Virus record (IMG/VR): IMGVR_UViG_3300029251_000043
Reading direction: 5' to 3' (one strand)
Source of the DNA: a virus
DNA: 36,511 bases
Part shown: in pieces, positions 1,296 to 7,757 of the stretch
Position numbering within the stretch: position 1 is the first letter of the stretch
Layout: every line of letters starts with the position of its first letter
The notes under the pieces: generated by a model
Told to the model about the DNA's origin: nothing
Seen by the model: the letters and a program-made list of their open reading frames with translations, nothing else
Databases searched by the model: none
Made by a program: the position numbers and the translations under genes

Positions 1296-2294
1296 ATGTC
1301 AACCATGAAAGCCTACAAAGGGTTTAACAAGGACATGACATGCACTCCGAAAGGCGGAAAGCCGTTCCAGTACAAGGAGGGCGAGACCTATGAGGAGCCG
1401 GAAGCATATCTCTGCAAGAGAGGTTTCCACGCGTGCCTTGACCCGCTGGACTGCCTGAACTACTACGACATCTGCAATGGCGTATACCACGAGGTCGAGC
1501 TTGACGACGTGTTCGAAGAACATCATCCGGAAGACACGAAGGTTTGCGGCAGGAAGATCAAGATCGGCGCGAAGCTGAGCATCAAAGATATCGTAAAATC
1601 GTCTGTCGATTTTACGATGGAACGCGTCAAAAAAGAGGGCGGCACAAATTCGGGTGACTACGCCAATCTCGCCAGCAGCGGTGACTACGCCAATCTCGCC
1701 AGCAGCGGTGACTACGCCAATCTCGCCAGCAGCGGTGACAACGCCAATCTCGCCAGCAGCGGTTACTACGCCAATCTCGCCAGCAGCGGTGACTACGCCA
1801 ATCTCGCCAGCAGCGGAAACAACGCCAAGCTCGCCAGCAGCGGTTACTACGCCAAGCTCGCCAGCAGCGGTGACAACGCCAATCTCGCCAGCAGCGGTTA
1901 CTACGCCAAGCTCGCCAGCAGCGGTGACTACGCCAAGCTCGCCAGCAGCGGAAACAACGCCAATCTCGCCAGCAGCGGTGACTACGCCAATCTCGCCAGC
2001 AGCGGTGACAACGCCAATCTCGCCAGCAGCGGTGACTACGCCAATCTCGCCAGCAGCGGTGACTACGCCAAGCTCGCCAGCAGCGGAAACAACAATGTTG
2101 TAATGTCGGCGGGCATTGACGGAAAAGTTAAAGCCGCAATTGGAAACTGGATCGCGATTGCCGAATGGCAAATTCGCGGTGGGCATTTCGTCCCTGTCGG
2201 CATCGTATCGGCACAGGTGGACGGCGAAAAAGTCAAAGCGGACACTTGGTACAAGTGCGAAAACGGACAGCTCATGGAGGCGGAGGAGGAGTAA
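1296..2294 (+). CDS. early protein: conserved N-terminal domain (KAYKGF..GFHAC type, resembles the DUF7666 family from memory) plus 16 nonapeptide repeats
   Basis: ORF-track 1296..2294. The central region is SG[DNY][YN]A[NK]LAS x16, and the C-terminal domain is non-repetitive. Confidence 0.8.
   Translation: MSTMKAYKGFNKDMTCTPKGGKPFQYKEGETYEEPEAYLCKRGFHACLDPLDCLNYYDICNGVYHEVELDDVFEEHHPEDTKVCGRKIKIGAKLSIKDIVKSSVDFTMERVKKEGGTNSGDYANLASSGDYANLASSGDYANLASSGDNANLASSGYYANLASSGDYANLASSGNNAKLASSGYYAKLASSGDNANLASSGYYAKLASSGDYAKLASSGNNANLASSGDYANLASSGDNANLASSGDYANLASSGDYAKLASSGNNNVVMSAGIDGKVKAAIGNWIAIAEWQIRGGHFVPVGIVSAQVDGEKVKADTWYKCENGQLMEAEEE
1650..2093 (+). repeat. 16 tandem in-frame 27-bp repeats plus a partial 17th
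   Basis: The unit AGCGGTGACTACGCCAATCTCGCCAGC is repeated head to tail over 1650-2081. Variation is confined to codons 2, 3, 4 and 6 of the unit. Confidence 0.95.
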
Positions 2295-2681: not shown

Positions 2682-3635
2682 ATGAAAGAAATCTACACCG
2701 TGTACAAGGACACGCGCAACATGAGCCGTGCAGAATGGCTCGCGGCTCGAAAAGCCGGTATCGGCGGAAGCGATGCAGCCGCGATCATCGGCTTGAACCC
2801 GTTCTCATCGCCGCTCACGGTCTGGGCGGATAAGACCAGCACGGACGAGCCGCAGGAAGAGAGCGAGAGCGAAGCGATCTGGCTCGGAAACGTGCTGGAA
2901 GACCATGTTGCGAGACGATACGCCGAAGAGAGCGGCCTGAACATCGTCAGATGCAATCAGATGATGCGGAGCATTGAGCATCCCTACATGCTGGCAAATA
3001 TCGACCGCCGCGTCAAGGGCAAGAGGATCGGCGTTGAGATCAAGACGACATCAGCCTTCACGAAGACCGACTTTGCCGGAGGGGATGTCAACCCGTGGTA
3101 CTACGCTCAGTGCATGCATTACCTCGCGGTCACGGGTTGGGACGAGTGGAAGCTCGTCGTGCTGGTCATCGGTCGCGGGCTGTATACATACAGCTTCAAG
3201 CGCAAGGGAAACGAAGACCAGATCAAGGCACTGATTTCCGCCGAGGAATTTTTCTGGCGCGAGTATGTCGAGCAAGGCAAATGCCCGCCCGTTGACGGAA
3301 GCAAGGCGGCGGATGAGATACTAGCCAAGCGTTATCCTGTATCTGACGGCTCGACCATCACGCTTGACTGCGACGACGCAATCAGTCAGTACATGACGCT
3401 GACGAGCAAAATCAAAGAGCTTGAGGGAGATAAAGCCCTGTATGAGCAGCGCATCAAGGAGTGCATGGGCGAATCTGAGCGCGGAGAAAGTGCGAACTAC
3501 ATCGTAAGCTGGAAAAACAGCAGCCCGCGAAAGACCATCGACACCAAGCGGCTCACAGAAGAGCACCCCGAAATCGTTGACAGATATATCAAGATTGGCG
3601 CACCTACGCGCCGATTCACAGTCAAGGAGGCATAA
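2682..3635 (+). CDS. YqaJ-like (lambda-exonuclease type) recombination exonuclease
   Basis: ORF-track 2655..3635, probable start ATG 2682. Motifs RAEWLAARKAGIGGSDAAAIIGLNPFSSP and EIKT. It lies next to recT. Confidence 0.8.
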   Translation: MKEIYTVYKDTRNMSRAEWLAARKAGIGGSDAAAIIGLNPFSSPLTVWADKTSTDEPQEESESEAIWLGNVLEDHVARRYAEESGLNIVRCNQMMRSIEHPYMLANIDRRVKGKRIGVEIKTTSAFTKTDFAGGDVNPWYYAQCMHYLAVTGWDEWKLVVLVIGRGLYTYSFKRKGNEDQIKALISAEEFFWREYVEQGKCPPVDGSKAADEILAKRYPVSDGSTITLDCDDAISQYMTLTSKIKELEGDKALYEQRIKECMGESERGESANYIVSWKNSSPRKTIDTKRLTEEHPEIVDRYIKIGAPTRRFTVKEA

Positions 3636-3639
3636 AAGC

Positions 3640-4566
3640 ATGGAAAGACAGGCAAGAAACACGGCGGGAATTATCACAAACGCAACCGCCAGCCGCGCAC
3701 CAGTCGCGGCGACTACGACCGCACCCGTCGCAGCGCGAACCGTCAACCAGATTCTGAATGGCATGTTCGATTCCGAGGGCTACAAAAAACGCCTGAACGA
3801 TCTGCTGGGTGATCGAGCACCGCAATTTATCTCGGCGGTCATCACGCTTTGCAATGCGGATGCAAACCTGACGGCGGCGGTTCGCCAAGCCCCGCAGACG
3901 GTCATTCAGGCGGCGCTCAAGGCCGCGAGCTATGATCTTCCGGTTGATAACGCGCTCGGTTTCGCCTACATTGTGCCGTTCAATAACAGCAAAAAGACGG
4001 ATGACGGAAGCTGGATCAAGATTCCGGAAGCGCAGTTTATCCTCGGTTACAAGGGCATGATTCAGCTCGCGCTCAGAACCGGGGCATACAAGCGGCTGAA
4101 CGTGATGGACGTGCGCGAGGGGGAGCTGATCTCCTGCGATAGATTGACCGAAGACTTTGAGTTCCGCTGGGAACAGGACGAGACGGAGCGCGAAAAGCTG
4201 CCGATCATCGGCTATGTCGGCTATTATCGCCTTGTGAATGGCACGGAGAAGACGGTATATATGAGCATTCAGCAGATCGAGGCGCACGAAGCGAAGAACC
4301 GAAAGGGAAAGAATCAGGGCAAAGGATGGCGCGACGACTGGGACGCTATGGCGCGGAAAACCGTCATGCGCCGCTTGCTCGGACGCTGGGGCGTTATGTC
4401 CATCGACTACAAGAGCGCATCGCCCGCCGCACTGAAAGCGGCGCATGATATAAGCGCAGGGCTGGTCGATGATGAATCCCCTCTGCCTGATGGCATCGTA
4501 GATGTGACAGACACTGGAACGGCGCATGACGCGCCGGAGAACGTGCCCGAAGACAAAGAACAATAA
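3640..4566 (+). CDS. recT: RecT-family single-strand annealing recombinase
   Basis: ORF-track 3577..4566, start ATG 3640 after AAGGAGG. Carries a GYKGMIQLALRTGAYK type RecT core. Confidence 0.85.
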   Translation: MERQARNTAGIITNATASRAPVAATTTAPVAARTVNQILNGMFDSEGYKKRLNDLLGDRAPQFISAVITLCNADANLTAAVRQAPQTVIQAALKAASYDLPVDNALGFAYIVPFNNSKKTDDGSWIKIPEAQFILGYKGMIQLALRTGAYKRLNVMDVREGELISCDRLTEDFEFRWEQDETEREKLPIIGYVGYYRLVNGTEKTVYMSIQQIEAHEAKNRKGKNQGKGWRDDWDAMARKTVMRRLLGRWGVMSIDYKSASPAALKAAHDISAGLVDDESPLPDGIVDVTDTGTAHDAPENVPEDKEQ

Positions 4567-4781
4567 AAACCGCAAGGGCTAACCCCTTGCGCATGGTGCG
4601 CAGCTCAGGAGAGCAGCTTCAAGGCGGCAAGCAGCGTCAAGAAGAAGGGACGGGTCGATACCGCAGCGCGCCGAACAGAAGAAGTTTGGGTAAGTCAAGC
4701 ACGAAGAAGCTGCTTGAAACGGTGAAAGCTCCAACAGAAGGGAGGATAGCGGAGCAAGGGCAAATTACGATCATACTGACG

Positions 4782-4977
4782 GCTCGGAAAGACGGGCACC
4801 GCACATTTCATTTCTGGCGCTTCGGAAAGACGAAGAACGTGTCCTTTAGCATCGACAGATCGGAAAGACGATCAACAAAATTGACAGCCGGAGAGACGGC
4901 AGAAAGACAAAACTGTTTTTCACATCTGACGGCGGGAAAGACCGCACACCATTTTTTCTGGCAGCCGGAAAGACGGC
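4782..4977 (+). repeat. array of six stem-loops with conserved GARAGA loop and covarying stems
   Basis: Hairpins at 4782-4797, 4820-4835, 4858-4873, 4887-4900, 4932-4945 and 4964-4977. Five loops are GAAAGA and one is GAGAGA. The stems are GCUCG/CGGGC, CUUCG/CGAAG, GAUCG/CGAUC, GCCG/CGGC, GCGG/CCGC and GCCG/CGGC. Confidence 0.85.
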
Positions 4978-5032
4978 AAATAAAAGACGTTTCACAGACG
5001 GCCTGCCGTCGGGCTAAAACGGCGGCACTCAT

Positions 5033-5166
5033 GGCAAGCATGGAAGGCATCGCGCGGGTGCAACACCCCCCCTATTCGTCAAGGTTTCTTCCTTTCCTTC
5101 CATTCTTATGCAAAATTGACGCGAAGCACCTTGCCCACGCGCCCGGTTCGAATCCGGGGCTTGCCA
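5033..5166 (+). ncRNA. tRNA-like module (T arm plus 7-bp acceptor-like helix); not a canonical tRNA
   Basis: CCCGG-TTCGAAT-CCGGG (5142-5158) is followed by GCTTGCC (5159-5165), which is complementary to GGCAAGC (5033-5039). A stacked 8-bp helix pairs 5040-5047 with 5096-5103. Total length is 134 nt, with no recognisable D or anticodon arm and no encoded CCA. Confidence 0.5.
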
Positions 5167-5199
5167 CAATTTTTCAAAAAAGCGAAAGGGGATAATAGA

Positions 5200-5958
5200 T
5201 TGAGGCGAGAGCAATTCACGTTTTATCGCAGCTACTACGAGGCGATGAAAGATTTGTCGGTCGAAGAATGCGCAAAGCTGTTGCTGGCAATCGCGGCGTA
5301 TGCGCTCGATGAAGAAGAGCCGGAGCTTTCCGGAAGCTGCTCGGCGTGTTTTAAGCTGATTCGACCGACGCTTGATTCCGGTCGAAACAAAGCGGCGAAT
5401 CGTATGAACGCCGAGGAACAAACAGAAATCAAACCGAAATCAAACGGCAACAAAGCGAAATCAAATCAGAACAAACTGGAACAAACCGAAATCAAATCAG
5501 AACAAACTGGAACAAACCGGAAGGAGAGAGAGAAAGAGAGTGAGAAAGAGAGTGAGAAAGAGAAAGAGAGAGAGTACGATAGTAGTAGTACCCCCGTACC
5601 CCCTCTGACCGACGACGAACTGCGGCGACTGCGGCAGGAACAGCAGGACGTGGAAACAGCAGCAAAGCGCGTCGGGCTGCCCGTCAGCGCGATGAGTGAC
5701 TACGACACGATGGACAACCTGCGGGCAGAGCATGGAGCGGACAACCTGCTCAAGGCAATCGACAGGATTCAGGGCGCGGCGGAAAAATGCCGGAGCTGGA
5801 GGTATGTCGGCGGGATTCTGCGGAAAGAAAAAAACGCCGGGTATACATGGGCAGAGAGAGCTGCTGAGAGCGGCGGAGGAACGGCAGGAGACGCAGAGGT
5901 GATAACCCGCAACCCGTTCGCGCTGCAATCGCTTAAATGCAGGGGGAGTGTCACATGA
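5200..5958 (+). CDS. replication organizer (DUF6291-like N-terminus, DnaD-like C-terminus)
   Basis: ORF-track 5116..5958. Probable TTG start at 5200 after GAAAGGGGA. N-terminal FTFYRSYYEAMKDL and C-terminal SWRYVGGILRK DnaD-like motifs, with a low-complexity KE-rich linker. Confidence 0.65.
   Translation: MRREQFTFYRSYYEAMKDLSVEECAKLLLAIAAYALDEEEPELSGSCSACFKLIRPTLDSGRNKAANRMNAEEQTEIKPKSNGNKAKSNQNKLEQTEIKSEQTGTNRKEREKESEKESEKEKEREYDSSSTPVPPLTDDELRRLRQEQQDVETAAKRVGLPVSAMSDYDTMDNLRAEHGADNLLKAIDRIQGAAEKCRSWRYVGGILRKEKNAGYTWAERAAESGGGTAGDAEVITRNPFALQSLKCRGSVT
5425..5575. repeat. iteron-like direct repeats plus polypurine tract inside the replication gene (candidate origin)
   Basis: GAAATCAAA occurs at 5425, 5436, 5457 and 5488. 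There is a perfect 31-bp tandem duplication (5457-5487 and 5488-5518), followed by a ~55-nt GA-rich purine tract (5521-5575). Confidence 0.6.
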
Positions 5959-7306: not shown

Positions 7307-7757
7307 GGTTTTTCTGATCGGCAACTTGACCCGTGACCCTGAAATGAGATCCACGCAGTCCGGCGTTCCGGTTTGAAACTTTTCGATTGCGGTAAATCGC
7401 CGCTTTCGTAACCCGCAGACGGGACAGCAGGAAACGGATTTCCTGAACATCGTCGCGTGGCGTCAGCTTGCCGAACTGTGCAGCAAGTATCTTGCCAAAG
7501 GGCGCAAGGTTGCCGTGGCGGGAAGCATCCAGACCCGAACCTACGAGGCGAAGGACGGAAGCAAGAGGACGGCGTGGGATATCGTCGCCGACGAGGTGGA
7601 GTTCCTGTCGCCGCAGAATCAGCAGAGCAGCACACAGAGCGCGCCGGGGGCATACACGACGGCGGCGAGCAAAGGCAGCGGGACGGCCTATGCGCCGCAA
7701 CCGCACAACGATTTTGGCGGATTTACGCAGGTGGATGACGAAGAATTGCCGTTTTGA
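7293..7757 (+). CDS. ssb: single-stranded DNA-binding protein interrupted by one in-frame TGA (7374-7376)
   Basis: Hand translation gives MAVNKVFLIGNLTRDPEMRSTQSGVPV*NFSIAVNRRFRNPQTGQQETDFLNIVAWRQ..., continuing in frame into ORF-track 7515..7757. It ends in the acidic tail DDEELPF. Alternative start GTG 7299. Confidence 0.8.

Follow-up and report, generated by a model that had tools for sequence, protein, structure and literature searches.

Why would a phage keep, in a stretch of DNA that encodes no protein, six hairpins that carry nearly one and the same loop on stems of differing sequence? The question is raised by the IMG/VR virus record IMGVR_UViG_3300029251_000043, whose 36,511 nucleotides (hereafter, the window) represent the greater part of a tailed-phage genome whose genes lie almost all on the plus strand, and in which the hairpins occupy positions 4782-4977, between the genes for a RecT recombinase and a DnaD-like replisome organizer. 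Our comparative analysis shows that they belong to an RNA hairpin module carried by phages, constant in loop and flank and free in its stem, which occurs in arrays or as single copies, at the starts of functional RNAs and in the interiors of transfer-messenger RNAs (tmRNAs).

A sequence-only reading of the window had listed six stem-loops in this region together with their loop starts, the spacings between them (38, 38, 28, 45 and 32 nt) and the words that precede them (TGACGG, TGGCGC, CGACAG, TGACAG, TGACGG and TGGCAG), and all of these are present exactly as it described. Each hairpin is the core of a plus-strand unit made of a 5' flank, a 5' stem, a loop, a 3' stem and a final A, and each unit was scored with R1, a home-made covariance model of the hairpin unit whose E-values are rough. 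Unit 1 (4777-4798; flank TGACG; 32.3 bits) pairs GCTCG (4782-4786) with CGGGC (4793-4797), including one G-U, around the loop GAAAGA (4787-4792). Unit 2 (4815-4836; TGGCG; 33.4 bits) joins CTTCG (4820-4824) to CGAAG (4831-4835) across GAAAGA (4825-4830), and unit 3 (4853-4874; CGACA; 33.7 bits) joins GATCG (4858-4862) to CGATC (4869-4873) across GAAAGA (4863-4868). The remaining stems are one pair shorter: unit 4 (4882-4901; TGACA; 21.3 bits) pairs GCCG (4887-4890) with CGGC (4897-4900) around GAGAGA (4891-4896), unit 5 (4927-4946; TGACG; 26.0 bits) pairs GCGG (4932-4935) with CCGC (4942-4945) around GAAAGA (4936-4941), and unit 6 (4959-4978; TGGCA; 33.9 bits) pairs GCCG (4964-4967) with CGGC (4974-4977) around GAAAGA (4968-4973).

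The six-hairpin observation is thus confirmed at these coordinates, and it lies far beyond chance. The 633-nt non-coding interval between the two flanking genes holds six hairpins in which a stem of 4 bp or more bears a GARAGA loop, against a mean of 0.0095 and a maximum of one in 2000 dinucleotide shuffles, and the minus strand of the whole window holds none by the same definition. R1 gives the six array copies 21-34 bits on the window, where the best remaining match reaches 10.9 bits. Where 2.7 copies of the word GGARAGAC are expected, the window holds nine, six of them in the array. When positions 4760-5000 were folded, the plus strand was more stable than its shuffles (z = -3.5), and the minus strand was not (z = +0.15).

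The sequence-only reading had proposed a search of metagenomic phage contigs for the same arrangement, and this proved productive. IMG/VR was scanned with two copies of CGGAAAGACG and then with three copies of GGAAAGAC, and both scans returned many loci; once the noise had been sorted out (unrelated repeats and coding tandem repeats, such as 9-nt CTGGAAAGA repeats in the three-copy scan), a coherent hairpin family was left. A scan of reference-genome contigs returned mostly noise, including Walker-A SGKT codons and coding tandem repeats. The unit that emerges reads (U)G(R)C(R), a stem of 4-6 bp of free sequence, a GAAAGA loop closed by G-C, and an A. The 136 distinct units carry 63 different stems; 124 of them have the loop GAAAGA and nine have GAGAGA. 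GGAAGA, GGGAGA and GACAGA occur as further loop variants. G1 and A6 are invariant, and positions 2 and 3 are purines, GACAGA aside. No other loop type was seen inside the arrays, in a check confined to the vicinity of units already recognised. The YTGRCR-like prefix noticed at the outset is likewise real and conserved, and this 5' flank is anchored to the stem base, not to the loop. MAFFT places the gap of the 4-bp units inside the stem and leaves TGRCR aligned, which points to a geometry defined by structure.

Covariation carries the argument that what is conserved is a fold. In an alignment of 103 distinct units from unrelated phages, 91.9% of the cells pair, compared with 68.5% in shuffles, and the covariation score of 0.568, against 0.182 shuffled, is reached by none of 500 shuffles. 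Sliding the partner columns by one to three positions lowers the score to 0.124 or less. Changes on both sides are seen at four of the five pairs, the exception being the closing G-C, which never varies in these units; the covariation of pairs 3-5 was not built in by the search patterns. When orthologous hairpins of the window's close relatives are compared, they differ at single bases by transitions that preserve pairing through G-U, for example GCTCG/CGGGC versus CGAGC, CTTCG/CGAGG, GCTG/CGGC, GTCG/CGGC and GCGG/CCGT. These results, together with the 63 different stems on one loop, bear out the earlier suggestion that selection acts on a folded single strand and not on a duplex iteron.

The folded strand is the sense strand of the neighbouring genes. 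Across pairs 2-4 there are 22 G-U pairs and five A-C juxtapositions, and this excess of G-U indicates that the gene-sense strand folds. All significant R1 matches in related loci share the strand of the local array, which in each context examined is also that of the adjacent gene, tRNA or tmRNA. Sequence by itself cannot tell RNA from single-stranded DNA; RNA is favoured here because units abut Shine-Dalgarno sequences, precede 5' ends of the RNase P type and lie inside tmRNAs.

The commonest of these contexts is the leader of a phage scaffold gene, where two to seven units end 0-11 nt before the Shine-Dalgarno sequence. The distance from the last unit to the scaffold start codon is 12-21 nt in 14 of 17 loci and 38-44 nt in the other three (L011, L266 and L284). 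The usual order is portal and Prp protease genes, array, scaffold gene and major capsid gene, and in several of these arrays the first GAC is preceded, at a distance of a few nucleotides, by a -10-like hexamer. Scaffold N-termini behind arrays resemble ...NLQLFA/FDGEGGG, and most of these proteins do not belong to PF06810. Scaffold autoregulation was considered as the common mechanism and rejected: the window itself has a scaffold gene (PF06810, 18323-18904) that lacks an array and is not related to most array-linked scaffolds.

In a second context, single units or arrays stand in tRNA clusters on the strand of the tRNAs (L046, L181, L269, L234, L297 and L298). Counted from the base of the last hairpin, a tRNA or a long tRNA-like RNA starts 4-6 nt (7 nt in L234) further on, and U is usual at position -1 of these RNase P-type ends. 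The tRNA-like RNAs possess a 7-bp acceptor stem, a T-arm and a discriminator, and in several the CCA is encoded. In L297 (4700-6170, plus strand), four consecutive non-canonical tRNA-like genes of about 85-110 nt are each preceded by one GAAAGA hairpin and a 4-6-nt AACAU-like leader; three of them clearly end in N-CCA, none reaches the gathering score of the Rfam tRNA model, and a fifth unit stands before the Shine-Dalgarno sequence of an open reading frame. The phage tRNA cluster of L221 holds, besides hairpin units and a sub-threshold YrlA-like match, two type II hammerhead ribozymes (3692-3759 and 4587-4654, minus strand; 51 bits each) directly 3' of tRNA genes.

A third context is the tmRNA itself. 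Eight tmRNAs that score above the Rfam gathering threshold (53-143 bits) carry one to four units in the region usually occupied by pseudoknots 3 and 4 (PK3-PK4), and most of them sit among tRNA genes on viral contigs. Phage-borne tmRNAs in which GAAAGA hairpins take the place of part of this region lie in L246 (940-1302, minus strand, missed by ARAGORN), L299 (1897-2221, plus strand), L310, L307, L306, L309, L300 and L312. A metagenome scan returned 70 tmRNA-type matches, 40 of them with a true hairpin, and at least two tRNA genes accompany 18 of these 40 loci versus two of the 30 without a hairpin (Fisher p = 4e-4). The presence of units inside genuine tmRNAs means that the element is part of mature RNAs.

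The carriers of the module are uncultivated phages from gut, rumen, freshwater and soil samples. True family members in reference genomes are all prophage-like and were found in Clostridium sp. AF37-5, in a Ruminococcus metagenome-assembled genome and in one contig binned as Brevifollis; the identified hosts are Clostridia, and some of the tmRNA examples look actinophage-like. In Mu-like phages the array belongs to the early leader, where a tRNA-like element, the array and a second tRNA-like element are followed by early genes that, judged by eye, include those for a 756-aa transposase-like protein and an AAA-type MuB-like protein. Two separate arrays, L078 (at the contig start) and L220, lie on the same 53.9 kb AT-rich IMG/VR phage contig, which shows that one phage can carry more than one array.

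Taken together, structure, strand, conservation and contexts are consistent with a multivalent docking module of boxB-like geometry that would serve one trans-acting factor, a reading we hold with moderate confidence. It retains, as the best account available, the earlier idea of a multivalent platform for a single binder, here a putative one: we infer that the factor exists, that it is a protein and what its binding would do. That the loop hardly varies (124 of 136 units have GAAAGA) is in keeping with a specific partner that recognises it, and a protein is the first choice because the loop plausibly fits a GNRA-like fold of the form GNR(NN)A with two extruded bases, the boxB principle. As proposed, the array would be transcribed in the sense direction within an untranslated module of about 630 nt, and each hairpin would fold independently, the differing stems within one array probably averting mis-pairing between neighbours. 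Every hairpin would then present the same loop and 5' flank to the factor, making the array multivalent, and the factor, most likely a protein that reads the loop as lambda N reads boxB and possibly ribosome-associated, would act at the 5' boundary of phage functional RNAs: on mRNAs before the ribosome-binding site, on pre-tRNA-like RNAs before the RNase P site, and also on tmRNAs. The outcome would be control of the stability, processing or translation of these RNAs.

Several observations weigh against this docking module. No protein family is common to all groups within the roughly 7 kb of flank available at each locus. The invariance of the loop and of the second pair is partly built in, because the loci were found through patterns that contain the loop, such as GGAAAGAC. 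The large L008 group has weak stems (3 bp, a mismatch and 1 bp), and several scaffold loci have a terminator directly upstream of the array with no clear promoter between the two. It is also hard to name a single function that would suit mRNA leaders, pre-tRNA leaders and tmRNA interiors alike.

The window's own array stands in a longer non-coding module that fills the interval between the recT gene (3577-4566, plus strand), itself preceded by a YqaJ exonuclease gene, and the gene for the DUF6291/DnaD-like replisome organizer (5200-5958, plus strand), which is followed by genes for a G39P-like helicase loader and a VRR-NUC nuclease. In order, the module comprises a boundary hairpin, an orphan Shine-Dalgarno-like word, the array and a tRNA-like element. 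The boundary hairpin, CGCAAGGG-CTAAC-CCCTTGCG (4571-4591, plus strand), forms its 5' edge and is kept in all relatives, including L036 and L065, where a different gene lies upstream; in L065 it shows the compensatory changes GCGGGA/TCCCGC. The A-run that precedes it, and that gives it the look of a minus-strand terminator, is not conserved. A minus-strand RNA, prompted by this terminator-like hairpin (4591-4571), was rejected: the minus strand folds no better than shuffles, its G-U pairs would turn into A-C mismatches, and the A-run, as noted, is not conserved. The orphan word AGAAGGGAGGA (4736-4746, plus strand) resembles an extended Shine-Dalgarno sequence that no start codon follows; about 35 nt ahead of the array it is conserved as AGAAAGGAGGA in divergent L001-type relatives, and may be a ribosome-binding stabilizer of the STAB-SD type. 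Between the array and the tRNA-like element lies a further small hairpin, GACGG-CCTG-CCGTC (4997-5010, plus strand), which is also conserved in relatives.

The tRNA-like element, which lies just downstream of the array and had been overlooked in the sequence-only reading, spans 134 nt (5033-5166, plus strand) and begins 55 nt after the last hairpin. Its 5' acceptor strand GGCAAGC (5033-5039) pairs over 7 bp with GCTTGCC (5159-5165), its T-arm is CCCGG-TTCGAAT-CCGGG (5142-5158), with a loop of the GTTCRANYC type, and its discriminator is A5166. The discriminator is followed by CAA in the window and by an encoded CCA (N-CCA) in most relatives. The interior of about 95 nt varies between subtypes; a canonical D-arm and anticodon arm were not found in it, and neither ARAGORN, which called nothing on the window, nor the Rfam tRNA model made a call at 5033-5166. 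Analogous long tRNA-like RNAs lie downstream of hairpins in L033, L040, L059, L181, L269, L234, L297 and L298, with acceptor stems that differ and stay complementary. The window module is not a tmRNA, as the third acceptor pair is C3-G70 and not G3-U70 and there is no RF00023 match in the window; a single large tmRNA-like fold closed by a second GGCAAGC at 4626 was also rejected, that copy being absent in L001-type relatives.

Fifteen relatives share the window-type locus, with the entire spacer 82-94% identical and the downstream replication gene swapped for another DUF6291-like gene. Their arrays hold six, five or two units, and the deletion junctions carry chimeric units. In the copy-number variants L061 and L068, for instance, the 5' arm of unit 2 is joined to the 3' arm of unit 3 or 6, and such chimeras with mismatched stems show unequal recombination at the invariant GGAAAGAC core. 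A stop-free open reading frame of 202 codons (4587-5195, plus strand) that might have made the array a coding repeat is spurious: relatives carry indels that are not multiples of three, and, 38 not being divisible by three, the repeats fall into different frames within it.

Elsewhere in the window, the SSB gene (7293 to about 7757, plus strand) is intact except for one in-frame TGA at 7374-7376 (…SGVPV*NFSIAVNRRF…). TGA is the true stop of 19 of the window's 35 genes, more than any other codon, and global recoding is therefore not the explanation; the in-frame codon could be a nonsense mutation, an assembly error or a site of local read-through. A DUF7666 protein (1296-2294, plus strand) contains about 17 tandem 9-residue repeats (SGDYANLAS and variants). 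Cultured phages gave no DNA match to the spacer, to 25 kb of the window or to two of the hairpin-bearing tmRNAs, and the window's RecT is at most 43% identical to known phage proteins.

The idea of one docking factor can be widened. The GAAAGA hairpin might be a general phage RNA tag, placed on mRNA leaders, tRNA-like RNAs and tmRNAs in phages of several bacterial phyla, through which one conserved host or phage factor would treat tagged RNAs differently from host RNAs. The component concerned could be the ribosome, through the 3' tail of its 16S rRNA or a ribosomal protein such as S1, and the effect could be preferential ribosome loading, protection from decay, or discrimination of self from non-self during host shut-off. 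The array and tRNA-like element of the window would then be an abundant stand-alone version of the tag. We put this generalisation forward tentatively and consider it somewhat doubtful.

A ribosomal role might also need no protein at all. In Firmicutes and Actinobacteria the 16S rRNA ends in ...CCUCCUUUCU-3', and both GAAAG and the orphan AGAAGGGAGGA are complementary to this sequence, which is assumed for the hosts concerned. In the manner of STAB-SD elements, the loop GAAAG would pair with CUUUC at the extreme 3' end of the rRNA, tethering 30S subunits to the leader, protecting it from 5'-to-3' decay and supplying the true Shine-Dalgarno sequence next to it. An ideal extended Shine-Dalgarno sequence would read AGAAAGGAGG, and GAAAG makes up its first half; the variants GAGAGA, GGAAGA and GGGAGA alter only an A to a G facing U, where G-U keeps the pairing; arrays abut real Shine-Dalgarno sequences in 14 of the 17 scaffold-context loci; the orphan word, as AGAAGGGAGGA or AGAAAGGAGGA, is conserved about 35 nt upstream of the window array; and the Clostridia hosts and actinophage-like tmRNA examples suit this rRNA ending. 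The pairing amounts, however, to 5-6 bp at most, is broken by one variant, GACAGA, and leaves the invariant A6, the G-C closing pair, the 5' GRC flank and the 3' A without explanation. It offers no rationale for hairpins placed 4-6 nt before the RNase P sites of tRNA-like RNAs, the next start codon lies 222 nt from the window array, and the loop variation on which it draws was sampled through biased search patterns. This explanation, which implies that the unit should not be common in phages of hosts whose 16S rRNA ends in CCUCCUUA, is a serious rival, if an unlikely one.

The fixed position of units just upstream of the starts of functional RNAs could instead mark them as punctuation, signals at which a host or phage endoribonuclease cuts polycistronic phage transcripts nearby, separating tRNA-like RNAs and leaving hairpin-capped, stable 5' ends on scaffold-capsid and replication mRNAs. 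In L221 units share a phage tRNA cluster with hammerhead ribozymes, which are processing devices, and in several scaffold loci a terminator or the end of the upstream gene lies directly before the array. Cleavage would, however, split the mature tmRNAs that contain units, and a single copy would do for it where arrays have three to seven. No candidate nuclease is known to us: RNase III requires longer helices, and RNase P already sets the 5' ends of the tRNA-like RNAs. We consider punctuation distinctly unlikely.

Processive antitermination of the nut type takes up the boxB likeness more literally: the hairpins would load an antiterminator at the start of long or untranslated operons. The loop fits the boxB-like GNR(NN)A pattern, and arrays do lie near operon starts (the Mu-like early leader, the replication module, the scaffold-capsid operon) and in untranslated tRNA clusters that would be sensitive to Rho. 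Yet no boxA-like partner element and no N-like gene was found: the GRC flank is the sole conserved second linear element, and the neighbours in the window are RecT and the DnaD-like protein. In several loci the nearest terminator is upstream and not downstream of the array, and units inside tmRNAs or abutting Shine-Dalgarno sequences are unexpected for nut sites. We consider this improbable.

Still less probable is the sponge that the sequence-only reading had put forward speculatively, a CsrB/RsmZ-like or Hfq-binding RNA that titrates a global regulator of the host. The multi-hairpin layout, the irregular spacing and the purine-rich loops recall CsrB and RsmZ, and a sub-threshold PrrB_RsmZ match (18.9 bits, E = 0.88) lies beside, not on, the L277 array. 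The links to CsrA and Hfq are nonetheless not supported. The loop has no A(N)GGA, the sole GGA being half-buried with its first G in the invariant closing pair, and no Rfam model of the CsrB/RsmZ type matches over any array. Most arrays are cis leaders of two to four units, and the contexts as a whole (Shine-Dalgarno-abutting leaders, pre-tRNA-like leaders and tmRNA interiors) do not fit such a sponge or point to either Hfq or CsrA.

The least credible proposal is an element acting as DNA (iterons for the downstream DnaD-like initiator, integrase sites of the arm type next to an attP core derived from a tRNA, or promoters formed by hairpins). In its favour, the array lies directly upstream of the replisome-organizer gene, with L074 arranged similarly, its repeats are irregularly spaced beside a tRNA-like sequence and the TGACA prefix is like a -35 box. 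Against it, the variable parts covary as pairs while loop and flank stay constant where duplex sites would show the reverse, the G-U asymmetry singles out one strand, and unrelated phages have the unit in tRNA clusters, within tmRNAs and ahead of scaffold genes. Unlike an attP core, moreover, the tRNA-like element possesses both strands of the acceptor stem, and no integrase was found among the Pfam-annotated open reading frames of the window or was obvious in the end frames read only as translations.

Other known kinds of repeat and motif were set aside more directly. A CRISPR array or the repeats of a ToxI-like type III antitoxin do not match an array in which only about 12 of some 20 nt are conserved, the stems differ and the spacing is 28-45 nt. 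A K-turn or K-loop, a hammerhead core, an anticodon-arm mimic, an ANTAR target, a REP/RAYT element and sigma-54 or extracytoplasmic function (ECF) promoters were excluded by inspection of the sequence.

If the docking module works as proposed, phages would possess a compact, portable RNA signal of about 20 nt, with a free stem and a fixed loop, borne on RNAs of three kinds (mRNA leaders, tRNA-like RNAs and tmRNAs). Its partner, once found, would bring to light a phage-wide layer of post-transcriptional control or a hijacking of the translation apparatus, and would also explain the purpose of many non-canonical tRNA-like genes and phage-borne tmRNAs. The module would further offer a handle on how the ratio of scaffold to capsid expression is set in phages of Firmicutes, and like the MS2 or boxB hairpins it could be put to use as an orthogonal RNA tag, with natural arrays of varied stems already at hand. 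The cultured lysogen Clostridium sp. AF37-5, which bears a scaffold leader of three units (locus L111 on NZ_QUDR01000016), makes the question testable.

The hairpin is a real RNA signal and apparently an undescribed one. Rfam 15 models gave no match on any array, either in the window (at gathering score and at E ≤ 10) or in 38 related loci; literature searches on the word GGAAAGACG and on phage tRNA-like and tmRNA hairpins returned nothing relevant, and no GAAAGA hairpin shared by mRNA leaders, tRNA-like leaders and tmRNAs was found described there. Precedents in genomic position are the two described motifs GP20-a and GP20-b (RF02991, RF03003) and six further, unnamed csRNAs upstream of phage GP20 scaffold genes; the six are mentioned, with many tRNA-like candidates, in a 2023 catalogue of more than 10,000 candidate viral RNAs (PMC10690425). 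Like the scaffold arrays, the GP20 motifs are candidates for cis regulation that precede phage scaffold genes by no more than about 25 nt, recognised through comparative genomics of IMG/VR. Their Rfam models have no match in L003, L004, L008 and L026 (gathering score) or in L216, L264 and L277 (E ≤ 5); the unit may overlap with other candidates of that catalogue, the six csRNAs among them.

Two of the contexts have counterparts among ordinary RNAs. The unit resembles pre-tRNA 5' leaders and tRNA punctuation in lying 4-6 nt (7 nt in L234) upstream of RNase P-type 5' ends, and it resembles the hairpins that replace tmRNA pseudoknots in occupying the PK3-PK4 region. To our knowledge, neither ordinary pre-tRNA leaders nor tmRNA pseudoknot substitutes carry a conserved loop that they share with mRNA leaders. 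The STAB-SD elements of Bacillus (cryIIIA; polypurine stabilizers) are likewise purine-rich leader words complementary to the 16S rRNA 3' end and unused for initiation; they are linear words of the GGAGG type, whereas the repeated element here is placed in the loop of a hairpin, is without the GGAGG core and shows conserved features for which pairing has no use. CsrB, RsmZ and RsmY share with the arrays the many short hairpins, a single repeated loop motif, irregular spacing and, putatively in the arrays, multivalent binding of one factor, but these are free-standing small RNAs built on an A(N)GGA loop that is absent here, and the arrays are mostly cis leaders.

Closest in geometry is boxB of lambda and P22, which is read by the arginine-rich motif of N. 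Both boxB and the unit have a short stem of 4-5 bp of largely free sequence and a purine-rich G...A loop, for which the unit may share the GNRA-like fold with extruded bases, and both lie in the leaders of phage operons, where the unit, like boxB, would be read on the nascent sense RNA. The boxB loop is a pentaloop, whereas the unit has the hexaloop GAAAGA behind an invariant G-C closing pair; a nut site has a separate boxA and one copy of its hairpin, whereas the unit has a conserved 5' GRC flank and comes in two to seven copies. The unit, furthermore, also precedes tRNA-like RNAs and lies inside tmRNAs, and its hosts are Clostridia and other Gram-positives. As a known kind, judged from sequence and its comparison, the array would belong with the protein- or ribosome-binding hairpin arrays.

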